From Clostridia bacterium (GTDB lineage: Bacteria > Bacillota > Clostridia > Oscillospirales > CAG-272), in contig JAFQPR010000009.1 of NCBI GenBank assembly GCA_017411605.1, positions 13,814-77,813 on the forward strand: a DNA stretch of 64,000 nt, written 5' to 3'. The stretch's first letter is position 1. The number at the start of each line of letters is the position of its first letter. The notes beneath the pieces were generated by a model. The model had not been told where the DNA came from, ran no database searches, and worked only from the letters and a program-made list of their open reading frames with translations. Of this stretch, positions 6,700-61,400 are shown in pieces. The position numbers and the translations under genes were made by a program.

Positions 6700-7535
6700 T
6701 TATTATTGATCTCCCTGTCGTACTTTTCCTTAAGATAAATGTACTCATAAAGAATGTCGTCAAAGGTGTAGTATCCGAATGTCTTGTGTATTCTGCTGAC
6801 CTGCCATTGCTTGATATTGTCGGTATGAGGGTAGGGAAGCCAGAACAGTCTTTTTGAAAAATGTCGAACGACTGTGCTTTTGTGCAAAAACTTTTGGTCG
6901 TTGAATTTTTGCGGAAGAACCTTTCTTTTTGCGCTCGAACGTATGAGCGCGCTTTGATCTGCGAAAACGAGTTTTTTTGTTTTTATCAGCTCGCGCGCTT
7001 TCTCGAAAAGCCCCGTTTCTCTCGCTCGTCGCATATTAAACAAAATAACGCCCGCGTTGATATAATTTGGGTTGATTAAATATTTTCCGTAGTGATCTCT
7101 TGCGGCGGCATACTCAACCTCTTCTACACTGAGTTTATAGAGAAGCCTTATATCTCGGTTGAATAGTATATCCGCATCAAGATACAGAAGCTTGTCAGGA
7201 ATGCCGTTTACCAAGTCGGCAAAAAGACGGATGAGGGTGTAGGGTGAGCAGTATGCTCCTTCGTTCGGACATCCCGAAAAATGCTTCATATATAAATCGG
7301 TTACGTCGCACTTTATAACTTTATTTTCGGAATTATAGTCCTTTACTACGTCCGAAAGAAATGCGACCTTACCGTCGCTTATGGAAATGTAGCTCTCTTT
7401 CAGGTGAGGCAAGTCCATAGTGAAGATATAGAAGGTGAACGGCTCTTTTGTGCTCGTGCGCTTGAGTATCGAGAGGGCGCTTGTTAAAATACCGTCGAAT
7501 ACTCCGTCGTTGCCGCAGAATAAAATATTAATCAT
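6696..7535 (-). CDS. GT8 family glycosyltransferase
   Basis: YLDADILF (DxD), INAGVILFN and ADQSAL motifs. The stop overlaps the start of the downstream fusion gene (ATGA, 6696-6699). Confidence 0.85.
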   Translation of the reverse strand: MINILFCGNDGVFDGILTSALSILKRTSTKEPFTFYIFTMDLPHLKESYISISDGKVAFLSDVVKDYNSENKVIKCDVTDLYMKHFSGCPNEGAYCSPYTLIRLFADLVNGIPDKLLYLDADILFNRDIRLLYKLSVEEVEYAAARDHYGKYLINPNYINAGVILFNMRRARETGLFEKARELIKTKKLVFADQSALIRSSAKRKVLPQKFNDQKFLHKSTVVRHFSKRLFWLPYPHTDNIKQWQVSRIHKTFGYYTFDDILYEYIYLKEKYDREINNK

Positions 7536-8319
7536 CTTTTTGATCTTTCTTTATATATTGTATCTTTACGTACGTTGAAGTTTTTGCCCGCTCGCTCATA
7601 CAGGCGTAGACCTTGTTACGCAGGTCTGCTCTTTGTTCTTTCGGCGAAAGCTCGGGGTCTGCATAGAACGGCCCGTCAACGTATGTGATTATTTTGACCT
7701 TGTTTCGGGAAAAAAACTTGCGCTCGTGGTAGGTGTTTGTAAAGCAGAATACGGGAGCGTTGAGCTTCACGGGATACGAGAATGATACGTCGGTAAATGG
7801 GCGTATTCCCGTATAATACGGCCAGATATGCGCTTCGGGATAGATAACTACAGCGCACCCTTCCTTGATCCGTCTTTCCACCGCGGCGATGAAGTTTTTA
7901 TAAGCCTTCATATTGTCGGGGAGCGGAATTGCTCCAAGGGACGGTGTGATCCTTCCGAGAAACGGCATAGATACGTTGTTCGGATGAACGATCACATATT
8001 TGTCCTGACTGACCCCGAGCATATTTGGTATTAATGCATCTCCGATGTCTTGAGAATGGTTACCGTAAATGAAGTAGCCTGTTTTTTTGAAGGTCTTGAG
8101 CTTTTTTGCCCCAACCGATTTGTGGGCAAACTTGAGCTTGGTATACAAAAACGCAAGAGGGGTTGCTATGATTCTATACCAAAAGAAGTGAGTGAATTTT
8201 TTGAAAAGCGAGTCGTGGCAATAAACGTAATTTTCATCTATTTTCTTAGGAGTTATTTTTGCTATCGAAAACTCGTCGTTTAATTCGTCTGTGTAATATA
8301 TAACTTTTCTTTTATCCAT
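7528..8319 (-). CDS. Lysophospholipid acyltransferase (LPLAT/PlsC-like) family protein
   Basis: YGNHSQDIGD and IYPEAHIWPYYTG blocks typical of the acyltransferase family. 8-nt overlap with the downstream GT8 gene. Confidence 0.78.
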   Translation of the reverse strand: MDKRKVIYYTDELNDEFSIAKITPKKIDENYVYCHDSLFKKFTHFFWYRIIATPLAFLYTKLKFAHKSVGAKKLKTFKKTGYFIYGNHSQDIGDALIPNMLGVSQDKYVIVHPNNVSMPFLGRITPSLGAIPLPDNMKAYKNFIAAVERRIKEGCAVVIYPEAHIWPYYTGIRPFTDVSFSYPVKLNAPVFCFTNTYHERKFFSRNKVKIITYVDGPFYADPELSPKEQRADLRNKVYACMSERAKTSTYVKIQYIKKDQKDD

Positions 8320-18719: not shown

Positions 18720-18963
18720 ACTGCAATAAGTTCTGACGGTAATAAACGTAATAACCGTCAGCGCCGCAGTAGCAATACTCATGCATTCTTTGATAGGAAG
18801 TCCGCAGCAATCGGCGGCACTGAGCTTTTGAGTTTGCAAGAGGAAGAACACAAAGAAGGTGATCATCAGCATCGAAAAGAATACCGCAACGGACAGAAGA
18901 AGACTTCTTTTGCCGTTCTTTTTTTATTCTTCGCAGAGCAATTTTTGTAATAGGTGATATCAT
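18720..18963 (-). pseudogene. Remnant of an FtsX/MacB-type ABC permease (N-terminal 80 or so codons, frameshifted and truncated)
   Basis: MISPITKIALRRIKK then a frame change in the T7 run at 18919-18925 gives NGKRSLLLSVAVFFSMLMITFFVFF, a typical permease N-terminus and TM1. Nothing permease-like remains beyond about 18720. ATGA overlap with the ATPase stop. Confidence 0.55.
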
Positions 18964-19630
18964 TGCCTCCTATCGCTCACGATCGCTCCGTCTGAAATCG
19001 TGATAACTCTTTTTGCCTCGCGCGCCACCGCGTCGCTGTGCGTTACTACAAGAACGGTTATTTTATGCTCTTCGTTCATAGTTTTGAGCAAGCGCATGAT
19101 CTCGGCGCTGCTCTCGCTGTCAAGATTGCCCGTGGGCTCGTCCGCAAGGATGAGGCGAGGCCTGTTAAACAACGCTCGCGCGATTGCAACCCTCTGTTGC
19201 TGACCGCCCGAGAGGGTGCTTGGGTATGCTTGCTCGCGCCCGTCAAGACCTACTGTCTTTAAAATTTCCGAGAGCCACGAGCCATCCACCTCTCTTCCGT
19301 CAAGCTCGGTGGGGAGCGTTATGTTTTCGACGATGTTGAACTCCGGAATGAGGTTGTAAAACTGATATATCACTCCTGTTTTTTGACGGCGCAAAACTGC
19401 GCTATCTTTATTCGATAGCCGTACGATGTCTTTACCTTCGAAAAGAATACTGCCGCTGTCGGGAATATCAAGGCCTGCTATCATATTAAGGAGCGTTGTT
19501 TTGCCTGAGCCCGATTTCCGACGATAGCGATATACTCGCCTTCTTTAACCTGCAGATTTATATTGTCGAGCGCAACGATTTGACCGTCGGCAGTGAAATA
19601 TTTTTTGCTTAGATTACAAACGTTTAGCAT
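18960..19630 (-). pseudogene. MacB/LolD-type ABC transporter ATP-binding protein with a 1-nt frameshift in the Walker A motif
   Basis: ATG at 19630 gives MLNVCNLSKKYF..GEYIAIVG. The frame then breaks around 19514-19520. The next frame reads SGSGKTTLLNMIAGLD..LSGGQQQRVAIARAL..ILADEPTGNLD. Confidence 0.75.
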
Positions 19631-19717: not shown

Positions 19718-20602
19718 TTAATTTGTTGATAACAGTAAGTTTGATGCACGGTATTTGTGCGGAGTGATATGATGGGTTGAGCCGAAGATAGATATAAAGT
19801 ATGAGGTTGTTGAAAAGCCGCAGGCTGCTCCGATCTCGGTGATGGACATATCGGTCGTCAAAAGAAGCTTTTCGCATTCGGCAAGCTTCACAGAATTAAC
19901 GAAACTTGAGAATGACATATTGAGTCCGTTTTTGAAAAGCCTTGACAAATGCGAGGTGCTGACATTGAGCGCTTTGGCGCAAGCGGTTTGAGAGACGGCG
20001 GAGAAGTTATGCTTGATATATTCTATTGCTTTTTGCAACGTGAGTTCGTTTGCGGTACTAAGTTTTCTTGTTGCAAGCTCTGGGGTATCTTGTTTCCATA
20101 CTCTTATCGTATATAGAAACAGCTCCATAACGAAGGTGCGGAGCGCGAGCTCATAGCCGAACGAGCGGTCGTTATATTCATTTAATATTTTATCAAATAA
20201 ATTTCCGAAATGATATGCTTCGGTTTCGCTGCTTTTTAAAACAGCGCGGTGCTTTTCACAGTTTTGAAGTAAAAGAAGATATGAGTATTCGGATAACGTG
20301 TGTTCTCCGGAGAAGATGATGGACGGCAGAAATTTGATAACTACGTATTCGGCTGTGTCATCGAAAAATCCGATAAAATGCGGCTCTTCGCTGTTGACGA
20401 ATATTGTGTCGCCGGCTTCAAGGGTGTATTTGTTTGCGCCGATAATACAGTGGCAAGTTCCCGTGTGGACGAAAACCATCTCGCAATATTCGTGATAATG
20501 AATTAGTCTTATAGATGACGGATCGCTTATCGGTCTTTTGTATTTTTGGCAGTGTATCGGAACGGACAAACCGTTTGACGTGTATTTCGTTTCTTTTATC
20601 AT
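19718..20602 (-). CDS. AraC-family transcriptional regulator (cupin sensor plus HTH)
   Basis: N-terminal cupin-like region (HYHEYCEMVFVHTGT..GDTIFV) and C-terminal double HTH (ACAKALNVSTSHLSRLFK..ITEIGAACGFSTTSYF). Confidence 0.9.
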   Translation of the reverse strand: MIKETKYTSNGLSVPIHCQKYKRPISDPSSIRLIHYHEYCEMVFVHTGTCHCIIGANKYTLEAGDTIFVNSEEPHFIGFFDDTAEYVVIKFLPSIIFSGEHTLSEYSYLLLLQNCEKHRAVLKSSETEAYHFGNLFDKILNEYNDRSFGYELALRTFVMELFLYTIRVWKQDTPELATRKLSTANELTLQKAIEYIKHNFSAVSQTACAKALNVSTSHLSRLFKNGLNMSFSSFVNSVKLAECEKLLLTTDMSITEIGAACGFSTTSYFISIFGSTHHITPHKYRASNLLLSTN

Positions 20603-20908
20603 AACTCCTCCGAGCAGAATTTTGATATTTTTTGATGGTTATATTATATCATACGTTTTCCCAATTTGCTATACTAGAAATGAAAAAAAGCAAAAATTAA
20701 TAATAAATTAAAATTCAAAGGAGAAACGATATGAAAAAAACGGTAAAATTGCTCATTCTCTCGGTTGTTTGTATGCTTGTGCTCTTCGTTCCCATCCTTG
20801 CGATTACTTCTTATGCAAGTGATGACGGAGCCGAGGCGACGCCTTACGGTGACGTTCCCGCAAATTATGCGGATGAGAACGTTTATCCATTCGTGATTTT
20901 TGATACGA
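20512..20908. repeat. Copy 2 of the 397-bp direct repeat (partner at 16242-16638), the functional context
   Basis: Same alignment as copy 1; here both flanking genes continue intact. Confidence 0.9.
20620..20675 (+). promoter_or_regulatory. Candidate AraC-dependent promoter: phased direct repeat plus extended -10
   Basis: TTTTGAT at 20620-20626 and again at 20630-20636 (10-bp phase). TGcTATACT extended -10 at 20667-20675 with no good -35. The same elements are present in repeat copy 1 (16350-16405). Confidence 0.35.
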
Positions 20909-23892
20909 ATGGTAAATTTATTGCGGCATACGAAAAGCTCTACGGCCCGAACGGAGGTGGTGATCAATCTGCTTTAAACAAGCTTACGTATACCCATTTT
21001 GCCAAGAAAACCTATAGCTCGGAGAACGGATGGGCGGAAGGTGTGACCGAGCTTGTTTTGTATATGAGACGCGACTATACTCTTGATAGCGATGAGACGT
21101 ATGCTAACCTCTCTCATATACAGGGCAACCTTATCTTCGACCTTGGCGGACATACGATAAATCACACAACAACCTCGTGGAGACCTTTGTTTAAGGCGAA
21201 TGCAAAGGGAAGCTCTAACACCCTCGGTGAAAAAGAGTTTCCGACCTTGATAACCGTAAAAAACGGTAGTATTAAAACCTGCGGTGCGCCGTTGGTTGAA
21301 GTGAGCTCGTATAATTCTACCGGAAACGTAGATAAGAAGAAGCTTGAGTTTACGTTCGATAATATAACCTTCGGTCTTGCTCCCGGTTCTAACTTAGCTC
21401 ACTATATGCTTTGCTTCCAGAATCCCTACTCTACCTCTTACGGGCATAAGACCGCAACGGTAGATCTTATTTTTAACGAATGTACGTACGATCTTGTAAC
21501 TAACTACAACAATAAGTGCAATGAGATTTTCAGAAACACTCCTGCTGAAACCCAGTACGTAAAATGTAACGTTACGGTAAACGGCGGAAATATAATAACG
21601 AGTACTCCGAACCTTAAGCTTTACACCGTAAATACCGACGTCAGCGGCTCTTCGGTTGTTTTCGGAAAAACGACGGGCGGAAATTATACGTCGATAAAGG
21701 TTGTAGGCTCTGCCGCAAAACCGAGCTTCGTTGCATTGAATGCGGACGGAGGAACGCTCTCGTTCGTCAAAATTTCGGAGGATGACGAAGGTGCGCTTTA
21801 CAGATTAAGACCTACAGATCTTGCGAACATAAGCTTCGTTCCTATGATGAGTGTCACTCTCGCGAGCGATTTTATTGCCAACATCTACGTACCAAAAGAG
21901 GATTATCTTTTGAGCCTTGAGCTTGACGGAGTCAGCCAAAGTCTTGAGGCGCTTGAATTGAAAAATATTGACGGCAAGGATTATTATCTTATAAAAGTAC
22001 CGCTTGTTGCATCCGAAGCGGCAAGGGACGTTGTGCTCAAAGCCGGTATTTCTCTTGCGCAAAAGAATGCAAGCGCTACGTTTTCGTTCTCTATCCCCAA
22101 ATACGCAGAGAAGCTTCTTGATTCAGATTCGCTGAACGTTGAAAAGACTCTTATATCCGACGCGCTCTCTTATATAAAATATGCTTACATATACTTTGAC
22201 GCGGATGATAAAGACGAGGCTATAGCCAAGATTGAAAAGGTTATAGGAGATCACGTGGGAAGCCTTGTTGTTGAAGGCAGCGGCGCCGAGCCGACTGAGG
22301 GGCTTTTGGGAGCAAGCTATGTGCTTGGCGCAACTCCTGCAGTAAGGTTCTATATCCCCGACGGCGCGAGTGCTGACGAATATGGATTCTACGTAGACGG
22401 AACGAAGGTTATGGATATATCCGTCGGTTGCAATGATAGCGGCGCTTATATTGACGTAAAGCTTTACGCTTACAAGATGTGCGAGGAGATAACGTACAGT
22501 ATCGGCGGAGAAGAGATCGGAAGCTATCACATAAATTCCTATTATGAATTCGCAAAGACAAAGAATGACAAGTCTCTCGTTGATGTTGTGAGAAGCTTCT
22601 GGATATATTGCCAGAGTGCGCGCAGATATAAGGCAACGTTTTCCGTTGTAAACGGCGAGTTCAACCCTGTTGCTACTGTTGTTAATAAGAACGGAGCTGA
22701 TGCCACCGTATCGTACGTTATTGACGACGGCGCCTGGGGTACTGCGATATTCGTTAAAGAAATGATGGGAATTTATGATAATCTCAAGGTTTCTCACGCG
22801 GTCCCCGCAAAGCAGTTTGCTACTCTTGTAACCGAGGATTCGGATGGAGACGGAATTCCCGAATACGTAATGGTAGACGGCAAATACGTATATGAAGTCA
22901 ACGAAAGTGGTTTAAAATTCTGGAACAGCGTTTTGGTTGAAGGAAAGTGCGAGATAGTTTCGCATACCTTCTCTCACGCATTCTGGGGAACGAATGATGA
23001 CGGCGGAAGCTTTGAGTATATGAAGAACGGTGAGTCCTCGCCTACCGTATCCGAGGTTATGCCTGAGGGCAGCTCGACCAAAGAGATATATGCATCGAAG
23101 CAGATAATAGAAGAATTGTTTGGTGATTACGTTTATAAAAACGAGCTTCTTTCGCTTGTCGATGCCGGAATCTCAGTAAAAACAGTTAACCACACTCTTG
23201 CTGACGGAACGGTAGTCGTTTCATATAGGATATTCTTCAAAGAGCTTTTGGTTCTCGCTTACGAAAGAGGCGACCTTATCAGCGTTCGCGGAACGTTCGG
23301 TTGGAACTATGACCCAAGCCTTGATATATCATCGAAGGTCGTAACGGCTCAAAGATATGATACGTACGATGAACGTATGTCAACTCCCGCTTATATGGTA
23401 GAGTATTATAATTCTAATCCCGACGGCGACGGCAGCGACGACATATCAAACTGGATAGCTTATATTGACAGCGCGATAGAACTCAACGGCTGGGCTTGCT
23501 TCTGTATTCATATGATTGACGATAATGCGGAAAGCGGTCATTATATATATCAGTCGCAGGCTGAAAAAATGTTTGCATATACGAACTCTAAAAACGTTTG
23601 GGTTGCGACGTACACCGAGGCCGCGATGTATTACAGCGAGTGGTCAACGGCAAATATTGACGTAGCGTATGAAAACGGAGCGATAAGCGTAACCCTTACC
23701 GACGGTGAGCGCGATGACGTTTATACAGAGGAGCTCACGGTAAAGGTCAGCGTTCCCGAAGAGTGGCAGAGCGCAAAGTGCGGCTCGGAGTTGCTCACAG
23801 TGCACAGAGATGAAAACGGCGGCGCATACGTTTACGTGAATATAGTTCCGGATTCGGGTACCGTATACGTTACAGGCTTCTCGGCATCGTAA
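20731..23892 (+). CDS. Large secreted or membrane-anchored protein: beta-helix-like N-terminal region, tandem module of unknown function, C-terminal polysaccharide-deacetylase (CE4/NodB)-like domain
   Basis: Signal/anchor MKKTVKLLILSVVCMLVLFVPILAITSYA. Rung-like repeats (NGSI, FDNITF, FNECTY, VTVNGGNI). NodB-like SYVIDDG and SHTFSH motifs around 22700-22990. AAAGGAG RBS. Confidence 0.75.
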   Translation: MKKTVKLLILSVVCMLVLFVPILAITSYASDDGAEATPYGDVPANYADENVYPFVIFDTNGKFIAAYEKLYGPNGGGDQSALNKLTYTHFAKKTYSSENGWAEGVTELVLYMRRDYTLDSDETYANLSHIQGNLIFDLGGHTINHTTTSWRPLFKANAKGSSNTLGEKEFPTLITVKNGSIKTCGAPLVEVSSYNSTGNVDKKKLEFTFDNITFGLAPGSNLAHYMLCFQNPYSTSYGHKTATVDLIFNECTYDLVTNYNNKCNEIFRNTPAETQYVKCNVTVNGGNIITSTPNLKLYTVNTDVSGSSVVFGKTTGGNYTSIKVVGSAAKPSFVALNADGGTLSFVKISEDDEGALYRLRPTDLANISFVPMMSVTLASDFIANIYVPKEDYLLSLELDGVSQSLEALELKNIDGKDYYLIKVPLVASEAARDVVLKAGISLAQKNASATFSFSIPKYAEKLLDSDSLNVEKTLISDALSYIKYAYIYFDADDKDEAIAKIEKVIGDHVGSLVVEGSGAEPTEGLLGASYVLGATPAVRFYIPDGASADEYGFYVDGTKVMDISVGCNDSGAYIDVKLYAYKMCEEITYSIGGEEIGSYHINSYYEFAKTKNDKSLVDVVRSFWIYCQSARRYKATFSVVNGEFNPVATVVNKNGADATVSYVIDDGAWGTAIFVKEMMGIYDNLKVSHAVPAKQFATLVTEDSDGDGIPEYVMVDGKYVYEVNESGLKFWNSVLVEGKCEIVSHTFSHAFWGTNDDGGSFEYMKNGESSPTVSEVMPEGSSTKEIYASKQIIEELFGDYVYKNELLSLVDAGISVKTVNHTLADGTVVVSYRIFFKELLVLAYERGDLISVRGTFGWNYDPSLDISSKVVTAQRYDTYDERMSTPAYMVEYYNSNPDGDGSDDISNWIAYIDSAIELNGWACFCIHMIDDNAESGHYIYQSQAEKMFAYTNSKNVWVATYTEAAMYYSEWSTANIDVAYENGAISVTLTDGERDDVYTEELTVKVSVPEEWQSAKCGSELLTVHRDENGGAYVYVNIVPDSGTVYVTGFSAS

Positions 23893-23920
23893 ATTTAAGC
23901 TTTTCCAAAAGGAGAATAAA

Positions 23921-24055
23921 ATGAAAAGATATGAATCACCAAATCTTTTGGTAGTAAAGTTAGATGAGAGCGACGTTATTACTACCTCCCCGGGAACAGA
24001 AACCACTCCGAAGGACGAGTCGGACGGCATCTGGGATCTAGATCTAAATCTGTAA
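23921..24055 (+). CDS. 44-aa acidic mini-protein, family shared with 61185-61322 (function unknown)
   Basis: Not in the ORF track (under 60 aa). AAAAGGAGA RBS 6-8 nt before the ATG. MKRYESPNLLVVKLDESDVITTSPGTETTPKDESDGIWDLDLNL, followed by a terminator. Conserved core shared with the second mini-ORF. Confidence 0.55.
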   Translation: MKRYESPNLLVVKLDESDVITTSPGTETTPKDESDGIWDLDLNL

Positions 24056-24082: not shown

Positions 24083-24130
24083 AAAAAAGAGCTATGAATT
24101 AAGTGCATCGCGCCATTCATAGCTCTTTTA
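24083..24130. terminator. Bidirectional terminator between the mini-ORF and lysS
   Basis: AGAGCTATGAAT (24088-24099) / ATTCATAGCTCT (24115-24126) flanked by an A-run and a T-run. Confidence 0.65.
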
Positions 24131-24185
24131 ATTATGGAAATTTGTTTTTTAAGTAATTTTATTTACTGCGCAATGCGCGAAGGGA

Positions 24186-53788: not shown

Positions 53789-54604
53789 TTATTTCTTGTG
53801 TAACTTTTTGTATTCGTTGGGTGATAGTCCTGTGTGTGCTTTGAAAACGGATAAAAAAGATGAAAGTGAACGAAATCCCGAATCAAAGCAAGCATCTATA
53901 ACTCGTGCGCCGTGGCTAAGTAAAACTTTCGAGTATTCTACTTTTATACTGTTAAGACGTGAAACGTAGCTTTCGCCTACGTGCTTCTTGAAAATATTGC
54001 TGAAATAAGACGTATTATATCCCGCAATTTTTGCCATATCTTCAAGACTGGGGTTTTCAAAGAAATGTGTATTGAGATAGGCTATCGCGCGCTGTATTCC
54101 CGCATCTTGCGCTGATATTGTTTTTTTATTTGCCGATTCGTTGTCTGCAAGGATCAGACTTAAGAAGCTTTCGCAAAGCTCAACCGAGCATCCCCCGTTC
54201 TCCTTTCTGCATTCCTTAAAGAGAATATCTCCAATAGCGGATGCATCAAGAATTTGCTCTTCGGAAAGTGTGATCGGTTTGGTTTTATCTAAAGAGAAAA
54301 TCTTTGATATCAATTTTGGGGAGATAACCGACGTATCAAAATTTAAGCAGTATGCTTTAAGAGGAGAATGCAATGCGTACGTATGAAAATCTATAGGAGA
54401 AAGTATGTAGGCGCTTCCTCTTTTTATTTCATACTGCTGACCGTTTATAATATGTGTTGCTTCGCCATCAAGCACCAATTCGAGCTCATAGTATTTATGA
54501 GCGTGAAGAGGACATATTTTGTTTGTATATCCGCATCCGATATAAATTGGGATTACGCTATTAGCAGGATTTATCTTGAATTGCCTGGTAATTTCATTTT
54601 TCAT
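53789..54604 (-). CDS. AraC-family transcriptional regulator
   Basis: Cupin-like N-domain (HAHKYYELELVLDGE..GSAYILSP) and C-terminal double HTH (MAKIAGYNTSYFSNIFK..VIDACFDSGFRSLSSF). Confidence 0.9.
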   Translation of the reverse strand: MKNEITRQFKINPANSVIPIYIGCGYTNKICPLHAHKYYELELVLDGEATHIINGQQYEIKRGSAYILSPIDFHTYALHSPLKAYCLNFDTSVISPKLISKIFSLDKTKPITLSEEQILDASAIGDILFKECRKENGGCSVELCESFLSLILADNESANKKTISAQDAGIQRAIAYLNTHFFENPSLEDMAKIAGYNTSYFSNIFKKHVGESYVSRLNSIKVEYSKVLLSHGARVIDACFDSGFRSLSSFLSVFKAHTGLSPNEYKKLHKK

Positions 54605-54777: not shown

Positions 54778-54825
54778 AATTACAAAAACAGTTAATAAAC
54801 TGTGTTTTATGAAAGGAGATTAATT

Positions 54826-57800
54826 ATGAAAGTGAAAACAAAAACCAAAAGATGCGTTAAAATGATAATTATCGCACTCTTGGCATCGGTGGTGATACTT
54901 TGCACAGGAATTGCTATGTATGCGACGGATACGGCTTCCGGAGTTTTATCTACGATAGCGACTGTGAGTCCAACGTTATCTGCCGATGGTAAATCAATTA
55001 TACTCCCGGGCGTTCCGGATGGATATACGGTATCCGTAAACGGCACGTCAAATGAAAGTGTTATCGATATTGACGGTAACGTATACACCCCGCTTGTGGA
55101 TACTACCGTTAAAGTTAATTACAAGGTAACAAAAATCGAAGACGGTATGAGTGCTGTCGATAATTATCAGGAGGCTTCCATTGTGATAAACGGAAAATAT
55201 ACAGCCGAAGAATTCGATAACGCCGAACCTGCAGTACTTCCTAAGCTTCAGGAATGGAAGGGCGGTCAGGGTACCGTTAAGGTATCCGAGTCATCACGCA
55301 TAGTGGTTTCTCACGCCGCGTTTATGCCTCAGGCTGAGCTTATAAACGAATATTTTGCCGACATTTTAGGATCTCCGCTCGAAATCGTTACGGATGAAGC
55401 ATCCGCTGGAGATATCATTATTGGATATGCCGACGCCAAGGAACTTGGTAAGGAAGGTTATACTGTTGAACTTTCCGACCGCATAATTATTGAAGCTTAC
55501 AGTGAAACAGGAGCGCTTTACGGCGGAACTACCGTAGCGCAAATGCTTACTCTTTATGAAGGCTATGAGTTACCGCAGGGATATATCAGGGATTATCCTG
55601 CGTATGAAGTCAGATCTTCAATGATAGACGTTGCAAGACATTATTTACCTTTGGAACAGCTTGTTGACACGAGTAAATATCTTGCATATTTCAAGGTAAA
55701 TCAGATTCACGTACATATTAACGACAACGGGGGACAGCAGAATTATGCTTTCAGAGTGGAGAGCAAAAGATATCCCGAGATAAATTCTTTACTTGGCGAT
55801 AATATTTATTCGCAGGAGGATTACCGCGCTTACCAGACCGAGCTTCTTAAGTACGGAGTTAAGGTGATAACCGAGATAGATTCGCCTGCTCACGCAGGAT
55901 TTGCAGGACTTTACGACTCTTCTCTTGTAATATCCAGCGACAAAGGAAAACTTGATCTTACGAATAATTACGACGGTGTTGTCACTTTTATGAAGGGACT
56001 TGTCGACGAGTTTGTTAACGGTTACGATGGCAATCCCTCCGTCATAATTGATGAAATAGATACTATTCATCTCGGTATGGACGAATATTATTATAATCAC
56101 GATCAGTACAAGGTATATATGAAAGAGATGTGTGATTATACAAAGTCTCTTGGTAAGTGTGTTCAGGTATGGAGCGCTTTGAAAACTGCCGATTTTTCCG
56201 AGGAGCTTCCTATAACCCCTGAAAATACGATAGTAAACTACTGGGGTGATGCGGATCTGAAAGCGTACGCAAACTTAGACTTTCCTGCGGTATCAAACTA
56301 TCCATTAAAGCTGTACGTGGTGCCGGGTGTAACTAATGCGTTTGGAGATTGGATTGATATTCCAACTATTTACGACAGTTATGAGGCAAATATCGTTTCG
56401 TCATCCTTGACCTTTGCTGAATCATCACCGCTTTTACTCGGTGTTGAGGGCGCTATTTGGCACGATAATAACGCCGGACATTCAAAGGAAGGTGTTTTTG
56501 CCCGTGTAAGAGACCAGATGCTTCTTGTGTCCGAAAAAGCATGGCACGGTAAGGCGGATGGCGTAACGGGTGAACAGTTTGAAAAAAGACTTCGCGCTAT
56601 TCAGGACCTCGTGCCTATCGTTAATCCTCAGAGCTTCGTTCCCTCGAACGAGGACGGAGTTGTTGCGGATTATGATTTTGATGAAGTAGAAAACGGAAAG
56701 ATTAAGGATACCGCTCAGGGACTTGACGCAACGCTTAACGAAATTTCCGTAAGCAATTCCAAATTAACACTTGATGGTACGGGATACCTCTCTCTTCCTA
56801 TAGATCAGATAGGCTTCCCGTATACAGTGAGCTTCGGTCTTACCTATTCTTCTACTACCTCGGGAATTCTTTTTGCGGGCGGTGACTCTACGTTCTGGCT
56901 CAACAAGAACGCTGACGGAAAAATTACGTTTGCAAGAGAGCTTCATACTTTCGGCTTTGATTTTGTATTCGTAAAGAATTTGCACTACGATATAATGCTT
57001 GTATGTGACAGAGAAACGATTAGCCTTTACGTAGACGGAGTTTATATTGAAGATGCGCACGTTATTTCCGCGGAAACGAAAAAACAAAATCTCAGCAGTA
57101 TCAAGTTTAGTGAATCCGTATTGTCAACGTCAAGGATAGGCGAGGGAATTGTAGGTACCTTAGATAGCTTGAAGATACTTGGAAGTGCAGACAAAGTTGC
57201 GCTCAGCGGTATCGATAATATGAAATACGGAAACGTGGCGCTCGGTAAAGAGACCAGTGCTTCCGGTACCGAAGTAAATTATAAATGGTTCCCCGAAAAT
57301 GCTGTAGACGGTATAACGGAAGGCTCGGATTTTAAGGTGTCCTTGAACAGAGTTGATAACGCTTGGCTCACCATAGATCTTGGTGAAGTATACTCTATAG
57401 ATAAGATCAAGATCTATTTCCTTCAGTCACCTGTGGCATATAAATTCCTTATTTCTGTAGATGGAATAAACTATACCGAGGTGTATAATCAGCCTTCTGC
57501 TAACGCAGCAAAAAAATCCACAGACACCATCGAACTTGGAACAAACGTTGCAGCGAGATACGTTAAGTATCAGCAGGTTGAAATGTTTTCCGCAACTCTC
57601 AGCAACGGCAACGTTGCAAAATACAGCGGAAGCTTTGCTGAAATTGAGGTTTACGGAAGCGAAATCGCGATAAATAAAAACCTCGCGCTTGGAAAAGAAG
57701 TTGTAGAATGCACTTATAATGAAAATGGTACGACCGGTGTACCTCAGAATCTTACAGACGGTAATAACGAGGCATCCTGGAGCAACAGAGTATGCTTCGA

Positions 57801-60800
57801 GAAGCTGGACGAAGTGTATTTCACGGTTGACCTTGAAAGCGAGTGTCTTATCAGCGGTGTAAATCTTTATTGGTATCAAAGACCTAACAAGTATCGGATA
57901 TACGTATCATCAGACAGGAGCAATTGGACTCTCGTTTATGAGGATCTGAAGGATAACGGTGGGGTCAAGTCAACTGACTGTGTGTCTATCCCCAACACCG
58001 TTATCGGTAGATACGTAAGGGTTATGTTAACCGAGTGCTTCGAAGCCTCTAACGGAAACTTGTATTGCGGAAGTATTGCCGAAGTGGAGGTTATAGGAAC
58101 AGGAACCGACATTGGCGCTCTTGATACGATAGATAGATATCTTAAGACACTTGACGGAGATGCAAAAACTCATCTTTATAACAGAGTAGCCCTCGTTAAG
58201 AGAATAATAAGCAAAGGAAATACCGATATTTCAGCGGTTGCAATCAAGCTGCTTTATGAAGAATATGAGAGAATGCTCAATTCTTCTTACACTTTAGATA
58301 CTTCAAAGGGAAATATCTATAATGCGCTTCTTGATATTAAACTAAGAAAGCACGCGAGCAGCGATTCTGCATATGCAGCGTACATGGAGGCGTATAAGCT
58401 TACTCTCAGTGCATACATCAATTCAAAGACGGATACATCGGTTAGAACGAACAGACTTTCCATGCTGAATAGTGCAACTTTGAAAATTGCGAAGCCCGAC
58501 AGTATCGAGACGGACTTTACGTTCGCTGATTTAAACCTTCTCAAGGACGGAAATGTCAGCACATATTATGCTACCACCGAAACCACGCAGGCGGTAGGTA
58601 ATTACTTCACAATCAATTATAATAATCCCATTACTTTTGCATCCATAAGATTAGCCACCAAGGATATTAATTCATCTCTTTCAACAGCTAAGATTGAATA
58701 TTCTCTTGACGGAACGACGTTCACAACGCTTAAGGAGATAAATGGTGCCGGAAACATAAGAGATTATCGCTTTGGTGTAAATCGCAAGAATATGTGCGAG
58801 CTTGTTGTCAAGAATCCGATAGACAACGTAGTAGCAATACGTATAACCGTAACGGCAAGCTCCACTAAGAAATTACAACTTGCTGAAATCTTAGTGAATG
58901 AAAACATAGACCTTGACGTTCTTATTCCCGAAGCAAGCGGCTATCTGCTCGAGAATTATACTACTGCCAGCAGCTTCCCGTTCTTCCAGTATTATAAATC
59001 CGAAGCTGTTTCTCGTGCGTTTGTCGACAATTTAGCTACGTATATAAGATACCTTGTTCCAAAGGCAGACGTTGAGGCAGTAAATGCCAAAATATCCGAG
59101 CTTAAGGCAATTGACACAACGCTTTATACCGATTCATCTGTAGCCGTACTTAATGCGGCAATAGCATCAGCTGAAAGCTTTGTTTCAAGTATCAACGATA
59201 ACGTATCAATATATGCGTCGGATGATGTGATTGAAGAGCTTTGTAACGCGAAGAATGCTCTTGTCAGAAATACTGCTATTAATACCGCAGAGCTCGAGAG
59301 CGCTATTGCCTCGGCAAGCGTAAATTCGTGGGAATACACCTATTATTCCTATAAATTCCTTAGCGATACGGTATATTACGCTAAATCGCTTCTTAACAAT
59401 GCAAACGCAACACAGGAAATAATCAATGAAGCTTGCATAAGGGTTAATTATGCGATATCAAAACTCGAAACTCGCGGAACGCGTGTTAATGTGGCTCTTA
59501 ATAAGAATCTCATCATATCAGGTCGCGAATCGGCAAGCTCGCTCGGTCCTGAGCTTGCGGTAGACGGCGATCTGACAACGAGATTCTCACCGAATCGCGA
59601 AGATGGTGCATACTTTATCATAGATCTCGGCGAGATACTGATGATCGACACTATTGAGGCAGTATGGAATCATAATCCGAGAAAATATAATATCCAGATT
59701 TCCGTCGACAACAAAAAATACGTTACTGTTTATGAATCGTATGACTCTCTTGTATTCGGCAAAGCAGTAACAGATACTATTAATTTCGAAGAAGCTGTAC
59801 AGGCGAGATATGTAAAATTTGATCTTGTATCAAGATTTCTCGGTAGTAGCGATCAGCATACGCTTTACAGTGGTTCACCTAATGAAGTTATGATATACTC
59901 AGCTGATATGACACCCTCAAAGAGCGAGCTTCAGTATCTCGTAGATCTCTATGCAAACGGAATCACTCAGAGCTTTGCTCCGGAGTGCAAGGCGAAGATA
60001 GAGGCGGCACTTGCCGAAGCGGAAGCACTTCTCGCAAACGATAGCGCAACTGCAGAGGAAATTGAGGCGCTCGTTAACAGCCTTACTCACACTACCGATG
60101 CTTTAAACTTTAAGTTTGCAAACAATAGTGTACATACACATACTTGTCCATGTGGTGTTTCGGTAAGTGAAGAGCATATCTTTGATGCGGGAACGGTAGC
60201 TATGAAACCTTCAGCGTTTGAAGAAGGCGAGATGGTTTATACTTGTTCTGTCTGCGGAGGCAATAAGACCGAGGCAATACCTACTGTTGACCTTTATCTT
60301 TCTTCGATGAAGTTGAATCTTGCCGAAAGTATAAATGTTGTATATATTGCCGAAGTTAATGAAAGTCTTGCTGAACCTTATCTTATAGTTAAGCTTCTCG
60401 GTAATGAATATAAGCTTACAAAGTATACAGTTCGTGCAGACGGCAGATATGAATTCGTTTTCAAAGGGGCAACACCTTCGAATATGACCGATGATATGAG
60501 CGCTACTCTTTATGCCAAGAGAGGGGATGAAACGGTAAGCTCCGATGAAAGAAGCTTTACCATCAGAGAATACTGCGCGGCTGTTCTTAAGGCGTACAGC
60601 GCTGACGTAAAGCTCAGAACTCTCATCAGCGATATTCTTGTTTACGGTGCGGCACTTCAGAATTACGTAGGTCACGAAACCGATAATCTCGCTACCTCAT
60701 CCGTACCGCGTCTTACGTCGAGCGAGTACGATGAAACAATTACGAGTAAGCTTCTTATTTCAGGTACTGCAAACGGATATAAGTGGATAAGCGCGGGACT

Positions 60801-61188
60801 TGTATGCACAGGACGTATGAGTGTTGATTTTAAGTTCGAATGCGCAAATCCTGATGATACTGTTATCAGATTTACTGTATGCGGCAGAGAGATGACCTAC
60901 AAGGTAAGCGATCTCGATTGCGACAGTGACGGACGTTACAGCATTCGTTTGAACGGAATTATGGCATATGAATTTGATGAAACGATAACTGCTGAATTCG
61001 TAACAGACGGAGAAGCTGTCGGTGAGAAGTTAAACTTCTCGGTTAACTCGTATATCGTTTATATGAATGAGCTTTATGCTTCCTCTACGAATGAAACCGA
61101 ATTAAAGCTTGTGGAGCTCGTTCGTGCTATTTCGTGCTACGGAAACAGTGCTAAGGCTTACTACGAGCAAATCAAAGGAGAAAAATGA
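54826..61188 (+). CDS. Giant (about 2120 aa) secreted or anchored GH20 beta-N-acetylhexosaminidase-like protein with LamG, four F5/8-type-C (CBM32-like), FIVAR-like helical domains and a C-terminal tandem module of unknown function
   Basis: Signal/anchor MKVKTKTKRCVKMIIIALLASVVILC. GH20b plus catalytic blocks (MIDVARHY, HVHINDNGG, HLGMDEY). LamG-like region (LTLDGTGYLSL..ILFAGG). Repeated NxALGK..AVDG..W..IDLG discoidin-type units. AAAGGAGA RBS before the ATG at 54826. Confidence 0.85.
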   Translation: MKVKTKTKRCVKMIIIALLASVVILCTGIAMYATDTASGVLSTIATVSPTLSADGKSIILPGVPDGYTVSVNGTSNESVIDIDGNVYTPLVDTTVKVNYKVTKIEDGMSAVDNYQEASIVINGKYTAEEFDNAEPAVLPKLQEWKGGQGTVKVSESSRIVVSHAAFMPQAELINEYFADILGSPLEIVTDEASAGDIIIGYADAKELGKEGYTVELSDRIIIEAYSETGALYGGTTVAQMLTLYEGYELPQGYIRDYPAYEVRSSMIDVARHYLPLEQLVDTSKYLAYFKVNQIHVHINDNGGQQNYAFRVESKRYPEINSLLGDNIYSQEDYRAYQTELLKYGVKVITEIDSPAHAGFAGLYDSSLVISSDKGKLDLTNNYDGVVTFMKGLVDEFVNGYDGNPSVIIDEIDTIHLGMDEYYYNHDQYKVYMKEMCDYTKSLGKCVQVWSALKTADFSEELPITPENTIVNYWGDADLKAYANLDFPAVSNYPLKLYVVPGVTNAFGDWIDIPTIYDSYEANIVSSSLTFAESSPLLLGVEGAIWHDNNAGHSKEGVFARVRDQMLLVSEKAWHGKADGVTGEQFEKRLRAIQDLVPIVNPQSFVPSNEDGVVADYDFDEVENGKIKDTAQGLDATLNEISVSNSKLTLDGTGYLSLPIDQIGFPYTVSFGLTYSSTTSGILFAGGDSTFWLNKNADGKITFARELHTFGFDFVFVKNLHYDIMLVCDRETISLYVDGVYIEDAHVISAETKKQNLSSIKFSESVLSTSRIGEGIVGTLDSLKILGSADKVALSGIDNMKYGNVALGKETSASGTEVNYKWFPENAVDGITEGSDFKVSLNRVDNAWLTIDLGEVYSIDKIKIYFLQSPVAYKFLISVDGINYTEVYNQPSANAAKKSTDTIELGTNVAARYVKYQQVEMFSATLSNGNVAKYSGSFAEIEVYGSEIAINKNLALGKEVVECTYNENGTTGVPQNLTDGNNEASWSNRVCFEKLDEVYFTVDLESECLISGVNLYWYQRPNKYRIYVSSDRSNWTLVYEDLKDNGGVKSTDCVSIPNTVIGRYVRVMLTECFEASNGNLYCGSIAEVEVIGTGTDIGALDTIDRYLKTLDGDAKTHLYNRVALVKRIISKGNTDISAVAIKLLYEEYERMLNSSYTLDTSKGNIYNALLDIKLRKHASSDSAYAAYMEAYKLTLSAYINSKTDTSVRTNRLSMLNSATLKIAKPDSIETDFTFADLNLLKDGNVSTYYATTETTQAVGNYFTINYNNPITFASIRLATKDINSSLSTAKIEYSLDGTTFTTLKEINGAGNIRDYRFGVNRKNMCELVVKNPIDNVVAIRITVTASSTKKLQLAEILVNENIDLDVLIPEASGYLLENYTTASSFPFFQYYKSEAVSRAFVDNLATYIRYLVPKADVEAVNAKISELKAIDTTLYTDSSVAVLNAAIASAESFVSSINDNVSIYASDDVIEELCNAKNALVRNTAINTAELESAIASASVNSWEYTYYSYKFLSDTVYYAKSLLNNANATQEIINEACIRVNYAISKLETRGTRVNVALNKNLIISGRESASSLGPELAVDGDLTTRFSPNREDGAYFIIDLGEILMIDTIEAVWNHNPRKYNIQISVDNKKYVTVYESYDSLVFGKAVTDTINFEEAVQARYVKFDLVSRFLGSSDQHTLYSGSPNEVMIYSADMTPSKSELQYLVDLYANGITQSFAPECKAKIEAALAEAEALLANDSATAEEIEALVNSLTHTTDALNFKFANNSVHTHTCPCGVSVSEEHIFDAGTVAMKPSAFEEGEMVYTCSVCGGNKTEAIPTVDLYLSSMKLNLAESINVVYIAEVNESLAEPYLIVKLLGNEYKLTKYTVRADGRYEFVFKGATPSNMTDDMSATLYAKRGDETVSSDERSFTIREYCAAVLKAYSADVKLRTLISDILVYGAALQNYVGHETDNLATSSVPRLTSSEYDETITSKLLISGTANGYKWISAGLVCTGRMSVDFKFECANPDDTVIRFTVCGREMTYKVSDLDCDSDGRYSIRLNGIMAYEFDETITAEFVTDGEAVGEKLNFSVNSYIVYMNELYASSTNETELKLVELVRAISCYGNSAKAYYEQIKGEK

Positions 61189-61322
61189 TGGATAAATATG
61201 AAGCGCCGATTGCGATAATGATAAACATTTCATCATCGGATATAATAACCACAAGTCCTATCGGAGACTCCGATGATTACGAGCCCGGAATCGAGCTTCC
61301 GGAGCTTGAATTTCCGAGATAA
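61185..61322 (+). CDS. 45-aa acidic mini-protein, family shared with 23921-24055 (function unknown)
   Basis: Not in the ORF track. The ATG overlaps the TGA of the giant gene (ATGA), and an AAAGGAG RBS lies inside the giant gene's end. MMDKYEAPIAIMINISSSDIITTSPIGDSDDYEPGIELPELEFPR, followed by a strong terminator. Confidence 0.55.
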   Translation: MMDKYEAPIAIMINISSSDIITTSPIGDSDDYEPGIELPELEFPR

Positions 61323-61348
61323 TAATTTGTAATTTGTTGAAATACAAA

Positions 61349-61400
61349 GGGGTTAACTCAAGACATTTAAAGCTTGAGTTAACCCCGATTTTTGTTTTTT
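61349..61400. terminator. Strong bidirectional rho-independent terminator
   Basis: 14-bp perfect stem GGGGTTAACTCAAG / CTTGAGTTAACCCC followed by GATTTTTGTTTTTT. Confidence 0.75.

Follow-up and report, generated by a model that had tools for sequence, protein, structure and literature searches.

Two short open reading frames that lie immediately downstream of giant secreted proteins in a Clostridia genome raise the question of whether they are genuine genes and, if so, what such small acidic peptides do behind very large enzymes. Within the 64-kb window (the whole stretch of DNA analysed), a sequence-only reading had noted that the two ORFs share a Y-E-x-P motif and an S-D-[VI]-I-T-T-S-P block, carry acidic tails, lack Cys and signal peptides, possess good ribosome-binding sites and are followed by strong terminators. 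We re-examined each of these features, and the observation was confirmed. The relevant features are as follows.

19718..20602 (-): divergent AraC-type regulator (cupin and HTH_18 by Pfam), 129 nt upstream of giant 1
20731..23892 (+): giant 1, a 1053-aa secreted protein with a signal peptide and no Pfam hit
21778..22656 (+): tandem C-terminal-type module of giant 1, here termed domain X
23910..23914 (+): ribosome-binding site AGGAG, 6 nt before the P1 ATG
23921..24055 (+): P1, a 44-aa peptide gene
24085..24135 (+): terminator-like stem-loop with U tract after P1, between P1 and the convergent lysyl-tRNA synthetase gene
53789..54604 (-): divergent AraC-type regulator (Pfam), 198 nt upstream of giant 2
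54802..61188 (+): giant 2, a 2128-aa secreted enzyme with GH20, four F5/8 type C domains and FIVAR
60349..61185 (+): C-terminal domain X module of giant 2, ending ...LVELVRAISCYGNSAKAYYEQIKGEK
61185..61322 (+): P2, a 45-aa peptide gene (44 aa if it starts at 61188)
61344..61400 (+): terminator-like stem-loop with U tract after P2

P1 translates to MKRYESPNLLVVKLDESDVITTSPGTETTPKDESDGIWDLDLNL and P2 to MMDKYEAPIAIMINISSSDIITTSPIGDSDDYEPGIELPELEFPR. Y-E-x-P is present in both, and the S-D-[VI]-I-T-T-S-P block starts 13 residues after the Tyr in both. The net charge counted from the sequences is -6 for P1 and -8 for P2, and neither peptide has Cys or a hydrophobic signal segment. They are the only two ORFs containing D[VIL]I[TS]TS in the six-frame translation of the window. 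P1 starts 28 nt after the stop of giant 1, while P2 overlaps the stop codon of giant 2. An AAGGAG sequence lies 4 or 7 nt before the two possible P2 ATGs, and a GGAGG-type site occupies the same position as the P1 ribosome-binding site in related loci. The stem-loops following P1 and P2 have fold energies of -23.1 and -25.4 kcal/mol (z-scores -6.4 and -6.8, respectively), although a simple terminator scan missed both. One small correction is required: P2 more likely starts at the second ATG (61188, MDKY...), which places Tyr at position 4 as in the rest of the family and creates a TGATG stop/start overlap, and the database version of this protein is the 44-aa form.

To determine whether the ORFs are genuine, homologues and their codon usage were analysed; an absence of syntenic homologues, or of coding constraint across them, had been named in advance as grounds for abandoning the idea. 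P1 has 384 near-full-length homologues of 42-45 aa, whereas P2 has three close homologues plus itself and aligns with the family. A profile search of 1.84 billion clusters returned 792 cluster representatives at E<=1e-3, nearly all 31-60 aa. Across 35 distinct genes, the invariant residues Y, P, D, I, T, T, S, P, G, T and E each use 2-5 synonymous codons, showing that selection acts on the protein. Paralogues within one genome differ at 31-50% of codons for identical residues yet keep 88-94% tail identity, which points to selection and not gene conversion. The alternative that these are chance ORFs, or that a DNA or RNA element is conserved and not a peptide, draws on their short length and on the fact that gene callers with length cut-offs miss them; it is refuted by the codon analysis, is opposed by the hundreds of full-length homologues with conserved starts, stops and ribosome-binding sites, and no Rfam match was found anywhere in the window.

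The family has no name in the databases searched, in agreement with the sequence-only reading, which recognised no characterised family. Pfam and NCBIfam scans of both peptides and of giant 1 gave no hit, and none of the 30 clusters looked up names the peptide beyond "hypothetical protein". A search of solved structures with the peptide profile gave only chance-level hits (TRAP/MtrB, ribosomal protein S19 and the KLF1 activation domain), full-text literature searches for DVITTS-type strings and for ScmC found nothing relevant, and a metagenome scan with a DNA pattern whose spacer was 2 nt too long returned one chance hit (locus L040).

We next asked whether the gene context is general, as the tabulation of gene neighbours had been proposed as a test. 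In about 40 of 44 cases the peptide ATG lies -4 to +66 nt after the stop of a 910-2736 aa signal-peptide protein. Among related loci, 49 of 52 hits to domain X are followed by a peptide gene, often with overlapping stop and start. At least 11 copies occur in one genome bin (MAG JAZONS01) and 8 in JAZRDI01. Distant members also follow secreted proteins with the same terminal helix. In contrast, the downstream neighbours at three related loci (L037, L050 and L054) are not homologous to each other, and there is thus no conserved downstream partner.

Residues 37-642 of giant 1 are shared with other peptide-linked giants, with 35-38% identity to the C-terminal 600 aa of the giants at loci L001 and L004. 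Within this region domain X is predicted to consist of two Ig-like beta-sandwiches with helices (AF2 model, pLDDT 86.7), and it ends in the helix LVDVVRSFWIYCQSARRYKA. HMM hits of 3.7e-41 and 3.9e-07 show two copies; in giant 1 the module is internal and is followed by about 410 further residues. The corresponding module of giant 2 was detected by BLASTP to giant 1 residues 452-633 (E 7e-4) and by the HMM (2.3e-24 and 3.7e-22). A Foldseek search of the PDB with the AF2 model found no fold match with E below 1e-3, only a generic sandwich-linker-sandwich topology as in IsdH. Neither giant has a recognised wall anchor among its Pfam hits.

Each peptide has two parts. In P1, residues 1-23 form the leader-like part (M-K-R-Y-E-S-P-N-L...D-V-I-T-T-S) and residues 24-44 the acidic tail (PGTETTPKDESDGIWDLDLNL); in P2 these are MDKYEAPIAIMINISSSDIITTS and PIGDSDDYEPGIELPELEFPR, respectively. 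The S-D-[VI]-I-T-T-S-P block, previously regarded as the core, lies at the junction between them. The Tyr-to-Ser spacing is 20 residues in 141 of 147 members; 99% of tails are net negative, 75% have an aromatic residue in the last 8, and 5% contain Cys, so that the conserved core Cys residues of lanthipeptides, sactipeptides and ranthipeptides are absent. The N-terminus alternates charged and aliphatic residues (MKKYxxPELEIIEL) and has no hydrophobic stretch, as a Sec or lipoprotein signal peptide would require. An AF2 model of P1 alone gave no secondary structure, with pLDDT 82-88 for residues 1-20 and 56-63 for the tail, as expected for a peptide that binds a partner in extended form.

A point that had been missed is that the conserved N-terminal half resembles the [Y/W]xxPx[L/V] leader bound by RiPP recognition elements (RREs) in the biosynthesis of lasso peptides and of the recently described linear polyphosphorylated peptides (LPPs) (PMC13381572). 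Popov et al. show that Y/W, P and the following hydrophobic residue are the RRE contacts, and that LPP precursors have a conserved N-terminus, variable C-termini and a phospho-Ser just after the cleavage site (PMC13381572). In the family described here Y4, P7 and L/I9 are invariant or nearly so. The consensus KKYINPELEVIEL aligns with the paeninodin-like lasso leader KEWLKPELEVLDV (PbaA, translated from primers), although RRE binding itself was not tested. At locus L037, the distant member P0275 is followed at 70 nt by an HprK-related kinase gene (TIGR04355, 2e-5) and then by an overlapping PqqD-family gene (2e-4; E 2e-5 to a Clostridial SpI-associated RRE), which is the A-K-B gene order of lpp clusters; the contig ends there.

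The resemblance has clear limits. Compared with the LppA precursors of Bacilli (PMC13381572), the peptides share K-x-Y-x-x-P-x-[LV], a conserved Thr/Ser junction (FET|xxS in LPPs, ITTS here) followed by a highly variable C-terminus, and an almost complete lack of Cys. However, profile-profile comparison (hhalign of profiles A1 and A4) with nine LPP precursors aligned only 6-8 columns around KxYxxPx[LV], with probability below 1% and E 0.1-0.2. The rest of the leader (ELEIIxFxxEDVITTS) differs from that of the LPPs (VLxHQxIxFETxxS), with no HQ and no FET, and the Tyr-to-Ser spacing is 20 residues, not 19. The tails are acidic, whereas the LPP cores inspected are Gly/Pro/Lys/His-rich; the hosts are uncultured Clostridia, not Bacilli; and the genes are dispersed behind giant secreted enzymes and not part of a biosynthetic cluster in a capsule locus. 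Among the components of lpp clusters (HprK-like kinase, discrete RRE, SipW-like SpI peptidase, MsbA-like exporter and NTP transferase), none is present in the 64-kb window, and neither the L037 kinase nor its RRE has a homologue in the 615 kb of related loci collected at that stage. L037 is the only supporting context out of about 20 distinct ones; the genomes as a whole were not searched for this machinery.

The paeninodin-like precursors (PbaA, PadeA) are nearly identical at the start of the leader (MKKEWLKPELEVLDV against MKKY..PELEVIEL), are associated with an HprK-like kinase and a discrete PqqD-type RRE, and the paeninodin core is likewise acidic and Pro/Thr-rich. Here, however, the motif has Tyr and not Trp, a choice that Popov et al. 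show switches RRE specificity, the leader is 4-5 residues longer, Thr is not at position -2, many tails are too short for a lasso, and no cyclase or B2 protease was found nearby. Prochlorosins are also dispersed multi-copy RiPP precursors that share one leader type and lie far from a single set of modifying enzymes, but the tails within one genome are nearly identical here and not hypervariable, and each copy is tied to a specific kind of neighbouring gene.

Support for a role of the tail outside the cell comes from loci L062 and L063, where the operon encodes a domain X protein, then a lipoprotein (lipobox, (PTEE)n linker, C-terminal ...VNLPGMDF) and then the peptide (...VDLPGMDF). A Sec-exported protein therefore displays the same C-terminal motif, although this lipoprotein was seen in one lineage only. 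In functional terms the arrangement recalls cohesin-dockerin and similar enzyme-display systems of Clostridia, in which large secreted carbohydrate-active enzymes carry a conserved non-catalytic C-terminal module and a short acidic partner sequence can be presented on a lipid-anchored, linker-rich protein. There is no sequence or fold similarity to these systems, the candidate ligand is a separate 20-aa peptide, and binding has not been shown. Because the tail is acidic we tested whether the module is basic; domain X is itself acidic (about -5.5 charges per 100 aa), so simple charge complementarity is not supported.

Our preferred model, which we consider about as likely as not, is that P1 and P2 belong to a large, unannotated family of 31-60 aa precursors of modified, exported peptides from uncultured gut and rumen Clostridia. 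In this view the first about 23 residues (M-K-K-Y-x-x-P-E-[LI]-E-[VI]-I-x-[LF]-x-x-x-D-[VI]-I-T-T-S) form an RRE-bound leader, in which the invariant Tyr, Pro and following hydrophobic residue would fit the RRE pockets and the next residues would add a beta-strand to it. The remaining 8-25 residues, an acidic, Cys-free tail that usually has an aromatic residue near its end, would be the product. The genes would be dispersed "satellite" precursors, transcribed and often translationally coupled with genes for giant Sec-secreted enzymes carrying domain X, and matured by enzymes encoded elsewhere in the genome: by analogy with LPPs and paeninodin-type lasso peptides, a PqqD-type RRE, an HprK-like kinase, a leader peptidase and an exporter. 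The kinase would most likely act on the invariant Ser23, a candidate by position only; phosphorylation was not measured. After export, the tail would work outside the cell together with the giant enzyme's C-terminal module, most likely as a docking or tethering ligand. What the analysis demonstrates is that the genes are real, that the family is large, that the synteny is near-obligatory, that the leader motif resembles RRE-bound leaders and that one member sits in a peptide-kinase-RRE operon, whereas processing in trans, phosphorylation, export and binding to the giant's module are inferences.

The earlier interpretation was partly supported: the claim that these are real, related genes and not chance ORFs is strongly supported by the size of the family, the synonymous-codon pattern and the recurrent synteny, and of the four roles it suggested an exported signal or peptide fits best, a chaperone or secretion partner remains a live rival, a regulator of the divergent AraC protein is the weakest, and a strand-donating subunit was not tested. 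The peptide-module complex was not modelled. In the chaperone model, which we regard as less likely, the unmodified peptide stays in the cell, is made by the same ribosome immediately after the giant's C-terminus, binds the tandem module by beta-strand addition, keeps it export-competent or unaggregated until SecYEG threads it, and is stripped off at the translocon. The stop and start overlap or lie 2-20 nt apart with a strong ribosome-binding site, typical of 1:1 partners, and such tight coupling is unusual for RiPP precursors and fits a cytoplasmic escort equally well. No fusion of peptide to giant appears among the top 150 family hits, so the separate ORF seems to matter, and the association with one C-terminal module is near-obligatory. 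Like T3SS class I chaperones, VirE1 and phage tail-fibre assembly proteins, the peptide is small and acidic, lacks a signal peptide and is encoded immediately downstream of, and co-translated with, its putative client, a very large beta-rich protein; those clients are not Sec substrates, however, and those chaperones are folded proteins of 70-200 aa without an RRE-type leader motif. Moreover, distant members keep the same N-terminal 23 residues behind proteins with other C-terminal domains (L037, L045 and L055), three domain X proteins at L041 share one peptide gene with its own promoter, and tails are genome-specific, not giant-specific. Nor does this model explain why the only invariant N-terminal residues are the Y-x-x-P of RRE-bound leaders, the kinase and RRE next to P0275, or the same tail on an exported lipoprotein.

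A true lasso peptide is unlikely. If the leader were removed after ...TTSP, Gly25 could form a macrolactam with the acidic residue at core position 8 or 9 (in P1, G1-D8 with W14 as the plug); an acidic residue sits at position 8 (or 9) in every tail type seen, the P1-type core would be 19-20 aa, a typical lasso length, the leader start is almost that of PbaA, and HprK-like kinases and PqqD-type RREs are typical of Firmicute lasso clusters (PMC7533575, PMC13381572). However, the tails are so acidic that such a residue is not surprising, this cleavage puts Ser and not the canonical Thr at -2, cleavage after the invariant Ser would leave Pro as the first core residue, P2-type cores would begin with I, V or N instead of Gly/Ala/Ser/Cys, and many members have tails of 8-13 aa, too short for a ring plus a threaded tail against a usual core of about 14-25 aa with Asp or Glu at 7-9. 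With P1-type peptides fitting under one cleavage site and others not, the precursor sequences alone do not settle the matter either way. No Asn-synthetase-like lasso cyclase or B2 cysteine protease was found among the window genes scanned with Pfam, and none was listed among the called genes of the related loci; a genome-wide check was not made. A pheromone-like signal, reporting to neighbouring cells or back to the producer that giant "public-good" enzymes are being made, is similarly unlikely. A conserved leader with lineage-specific short tails is the pattern seen in pheromone families, the tails are nearly identical within a genome and differ between genomes, and divergent transcription regulators are frequent neighbours, but a signal does not need 8-11 copies each translationally coupled to a separate enzyme gene, AraC/cupin regulators are not known peptide receptors, no receptor or transporter is conserved nearby, and the lipoprotein displaying the same tail on a long linker suggests a tethered ligand, not a diffusible cue. 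Feedback through a cytoplasmic peptide acting on the AraC-type regulator is very unlikely. A divergent AraC gene lies 120-275 nt upstream of the giant in at least 11 loci, including both window loci, and the acidic and hydrophobic tail superficially resembles an acidic activation motif, but the KLF1 match (E 2.6) is at chance level. The peptide tracks the secreted giant and not the regulator: L001 has three giant-peptide pairs in tandem with no AraC between them, distant members at L035, L050, L059 and L062 have no AraC nearby, and the third AraC of the window controls a cytoplasmic melibiase and has no peptide. A sortase motif (SPxTG, suggested by S-P-G-T-E) was rejected because Glu replaces Gly and there is no hydrophobic tail, and a nascent-chain arrest peptide because a terminator follows and there is no downstream gene to regulate.

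A bolder and unlikely extension, which the data do not rule out, is that the peptides are the missing half of a new enzyme-display system. A RiPP-type pathway would process and export a short acidic peptide, perhaps fixing it to the cell envelope through a phosphorylated or glycosylated Ser, and the tandem C-terminal module of each giant would dock onto it, with the lipoprotein carrying the same tail on a (PTEE)n linker as an alternative anchor. In this way uncultured gut Clostridia would hold wall-anchor-less giant glycan-degrading enzymes at their surface, which would also give the first biological role for the LPP and paeninodin-type class of phosphorylated peptides.

The arrangement of such peptide genes behind giant secreted enzymes has not been described before. 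Hundreds of these small genes are absent from current annotation of gut and rumen Clostridia, the tandem module on the giant enzymes is previously undescribed, and precursor-centred RiPP mining should look behind large secreted-protein genes as well as next to tailoring enzymes. RRE-dependent phosphorylated peptides (paeninodin-type lasso peptides and LPPs) have no known biological role, the only existing clue being that their clusters sit in capsule loci (PMC13381572). Here a related-looking leader family is wired, gene by gene, to giant secreted carbohydrate-active enzymes that share one uncharacterised C-terminal module, which makes a concrete role testable, namely the surface docking or assembly of enzymes.

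P1 and P2 translate exactly as the sequence-only reading had described, and its observation holds. The features of the window considered here are as follows.

4933-8319 (-), a run of two GT8 glycosyltransferases and two acyltransferase-domain proteins, a possible envelope-glycan modification cluster for which no link to the peptides was found
18960-19630 (-), an ABC-transporter ATPase split into a 49-aa ORF and a 174-aa ORF that overlap by a few bases, a frameshifted pseudogene or an assembly error
22660-23892 (+), residues 650-1053 of giant 1, the secreted protein preceding P1
23921-24055, P1
24008-24046, tail of P1
38516-42458, a third AraC-type regulator next to an EamA transporter and a melibiase-like enzyme
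54802-54830, start of giant 2, the enzyme preceding P2
61185-61322, P2

Both peptides contain Y-E-x-P near the N-terminus, an alternating hydrophobic stretch, the block S-D-[VI]-I-T-T-S-P starting 13 residues after the Tyr, and an acidic tail, with net charges of -6 and -8 for P1 and P2, respectively. They are the only two D[VIL]I[TS]TS ORFs in the six-frame translation of the window. P1 starts 28 nt after the stop of giant 1, a 1053-aa signal-peptide protein, while P2 overlaps the stop of giant 2, a 2128-aa enzyme with GH20, four F5/8 type C domains and FIVAR. The listed GTG start of giant 2 gives VFYERRLIMKVKTK..., whereas the ATG eight codons downstream (MKVKTKTKRCVKMIIIALLASVV...) looks like the real start of the signal peptide. 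Each peptide gene has an AGGAG-type ribosome-binding site and is followed by a strong stem-loop with a U tract (-23.1 and -25.4 kcal/mol, z about -6.5). P2 more probably starts at its second ATG (61188), which gives a TGATG stop/start overlap and places Tyr at position 4, as in the rest of the family.

To determine whether these ORFs belong to a wider family, homologues were sought by sequence and by profile. P1 finds 384 proteins, almost all 42-45 aa, 65-98% identical over the full length and unnamed beyond 'hypothetical protein'. A profile built from 26 members finds 792 cluster representatives at E<=1e-3 among 1.84 billion, and nearly all of those listed are 31-60 aa. An absence of coding constraint among homologues had been put forward as evidence that would overturn the identification of these ORFs as genes. 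In contrast, across 35 distinct genes the invariant residues (Y, P, D, I, T, T, S, P, G, T, E) are each written with 2-5 synonymous codons, and selection therefore acts on the peptide and not on a DNA or RNA element. Rfam finds nothing in the window, Pfam and NCBIfam have no model for the peptides, and none of the 30 clusters looked up names the peptide beyond 'hypothetical protein'. The interpretation offered by the sequence-only reading is thus supported in part: these are real, related genes, while the roles it proposed fare unevenly (see below).

The family consensus is M-K-K-Y-x-x-P-E-[LI]-E-[VI]-I-x-[LF]-x-x-x-D-[VI]-I-T-T-S, followed by a tail. The Tyr-to-Ser distance is 20 residues in 141 of 147 members. 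Across the family, tails are 8-49 aa long (median 20), 99% carry a net negative charge (mean -4.1), 75% have an aromatic residue in the last eight positions and 5% contain Cys. Tails are lineage-specific, as illustrated by PGTETTPKDESDGIWDLDLG, PGTETPWYEENDGIWDLSIN, PGTETPILPDEEFSW, the P2 type PIGDSDDYEPGIELPELEFPR, and short forms such as GEFGETEWD. Within one genome the tails are 88-94% identical, while 31-50% of codons for identical residues differ, indicating that they are held by selection and not by recent gene conversion. This points to a partner that is common to all copies in a genome. An AF2 model of P1 alone predicts no secondary structure, with moderately high confidence for an extended N-terminal 20 residues and low confidence for the tail. 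The tail of P1, PGTETTPKDESDGIWDLDL, resembles the acidic activation domain of KLF1 (PGEEEDDERGADATWDLDL, PDB 2l2i chain B) only at chance level (E 2.6), although the comparison illustrates its acidic-plus-aromatic short-motif character.

Recurrence of the mini-ORFs in syntenic positions in related genomes had likewise been set as a test, and here the gene context generalizes. A scan of the genome collection returned 27 loci (locus numbers are prefixed L), all from uncultured 'Eubacteriales/Clostridia bacterium' bins of herbivore guts; one bin has at least 11 distinct copies and another has 8. In about 40 of 44 cases, the peptide ATG lies -4 to +66 nt after the stop of a 910-2736 aa protein with an N-terminal signal peptide, and a GGAGG-type site sits in the gap. 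L001 carries three giant-peptide pairs in tandem. At L001 (10234-10293) and L003 (544-612), a leaderless remnant encoding ...PKEDNDGIWDLDLG lies about 100 nt after an intact peptide gene and looks like a partial duplication of the tail-coding part. At L011, L012, L015 and L016 (about 60-70 nt before the Y-x-x-P codons) and at L027 (9240-9380), some copies have N-terminal extensions (MQNSKCKMQNEKNEF...) built from ATGCAGAAT-like repeats and one copy starts with TTG; simple ATG-based ORF finders therefore miss them.

While the giants differ in catalytic domains (GH20, SASA esterase, metallophosphoesterase, LamG and GH141), they share a module whose last 300 residues are predicted to form two Ig-like sandwiches with helices, ending in a helix of the type LVxLVExLWKYxxSAxxYRxSV. 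The AF2 model has a pLDDT of 86.7, and the predicted fold has no PDB neighbour with E below 1e-3. Using an HMM of this module, 49 of 52 hits in the loci are followed by a peptide gene, a count that includes copies with TTG or extended starts. In giant 1 the module is internal and is followed by about 410 further residues with no Pfam or NCBIfam hit; the giants on L010 and L015 have a similar extra C-terminal part of about 415 aa, and the peptide gene still follows in all three. A divergent AraC-type regulator lies 120-275 nt upstream of the giant in at least 11 loci, including both in the window, but is absent from many others. Moreover, the third AraC-type regulator of the window has neither a giant nor a peptide gene beside it, which shows that the peptide tracks secreted giants and not AraC regulators.

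Distant family members (numbered with the prefix P0) behave in the same way. Peptides sharing only the N-terminal 23 residues (P0243, P0217, P0229, P0286, P0282, P0272 and P0189) also follow secreted proteins that end in the same kind of terminal helix, and these upstream proteins include DUF285/LRR and other large secreted proteins. Three members (P0275, P0284 and P0279) follow large secreted proteins with other C-termini. On L041 (397-9855), three consecutive large surface proteins (Flg_new, DUF6878 and DUF285/LRR) all end in the same terminal-helix domain and share one peptide gene, which follows only the last of them and has its own near-consensus promoter (TTGACA-17-TATACT). No downstream neighbour is conserved.

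The only invariant residues of the N-terminal part are Tyr and Pro in a Y-x-x-P spacing, followed by a conserved aliphatic residue and a strand-like pattern. This is the [Y/W]xxPx[L/V] motif by which lasso-peptide leaders bind their PqqD-type RiPP recognition element (RRE), a resemblance that the sequence-only reading had not drawn. A second family using this motif, the linear polyphosphorylated peptides (LPPs), was described by Popov et al. (2026, PMC13381572). The LPP cluster contains lppA, an HprK-like kinase, an RRE, a SipW-like peptidase, an exporter and an NTP transferase; the precursors have a conserved N-terminus (YxxPxVLxHQxIxFETxxS) and variable C-termini; the leader is cut after Thr-1 and Ser3 of the core is polyphosphorylated; and the biological role is unknown. 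Translation of the primers from that study gave the paeninodin-like lasso leader MKKEWLKPELEVLDVNQTM and the LppA leader MEENTKREQKLYARPMVLSQQPVRFET, and the consensus of the present family, KKYINPELEVIEL, aligns with KEWLKPELEVLDV. However, profile-profile comparison with nine LPP precursors aligns only the KxYxxPx[LV] stretch and is not significant. We therefore do not assign the peptides to the LPP family; they look like a separate leader family built on the same recognition motif.

A direct link to maturation enzymes was seen once. On L037 the peptide P0275 (MEKYEVPELEIIRLESEDVITTSGDLSDDDDDWFGEDVFED) is followed after 70 nt by a gene for a 246-aa HprK-related kinase (TIGR04355, 2e-5, with a P-loop) and then by an overlapping PqqD-family gene cut by the contig end (PqqD 2e-4; E 2e-5 to a Clostridial SpI-associated RRE tabulated in PMC13381572). 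This is the A-K-B order of lpp clusters, and it also lies behind a large Flg_new surface protein. A kinase-RRE pair is rare in a genome, so meeting one directly downstream in about 20 contexts is unlikely by chance. It is still a single case: neither the L037 kinase nor its RRE has a homologue in the 615 kb of loci searched, and the window itself has no such gene. A further arrangement hints that the tail works outside the cell. On L062 and L063 the operon encodes, in order, a 997-aa module-bearing protein, a 188-aa lipoprotein (L062 7043-7609; L063 6638-7168) with a lipobox, a long (PTEE)n linker and the C-terminus ...GDGSVNLPGMDF (VNLPGMDF/L), the peptide P0189 ending ...TTEDGGVDLPGMDF (VDLPGMDF), and a second, more divergent family peptide of 51 aa. 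A membrane-anchored, Sec-exported protein thus presents the same C-terminal motif at the end of a flexible linker, and the peptide has a parallel layout, with the invariant Thr-Thr-Ser followed by a Pro/Thr-rich stretch and then the acidic and aromatic end. This suggests that the tail is an extracellular ligand, for which the constant neighbour, the tandem C-terminal module, is the obvious candidate receptor. Against this, or leaving room for doubt, the module is acidic overall, the lipoprotein is from one lineage, and no complex of peptide and module was modelled. The most likely reading is that the peptides are dispersed RiPP-type precursors with an RRE-bound leader.

Among the alternatives, the main rival is an unmodified cytoplasmic escort for the giant's C-terminal module, a role close to the chaperone or secretion partner suggested from the sequence alone. 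While this model explains the tight translational coupling, it does not explain the Y-x-x-P invariance, the L037 operon or the lipoprotein tail, and we consider it possible but unlikely. A true lasso product is possible for P1-type tails (G1-D8) but impossible for the many short tails, and both this reading and that of a diffusible signal appear doubtful. Modulation of the AraC-type regulator, which had also been suggested, is less likely again, and chance ORFs are excluded.

The recognition motif and the likely enzymology belong to the RRE-dependent RiPPs, which are already known. In contrast, literature searches found no description of the present arrangement, and the new elements are the leader family itself, its size and its hosts, and its near-obligatory, often translationally coupled placement behind giant secreted enzymes carrying a previously undescribed tandem module. 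The existence of the genes, the extent of the family and this placement are shown here, while their processing, export and extracellular action are inferred. In the most likely reading, which we hold with moderate confidence, the dispersed precursors would be matured in trans, exported, and then act with the giant enzymes; that they do so by docking or tethering is, taken on its own, a tentative proposal.
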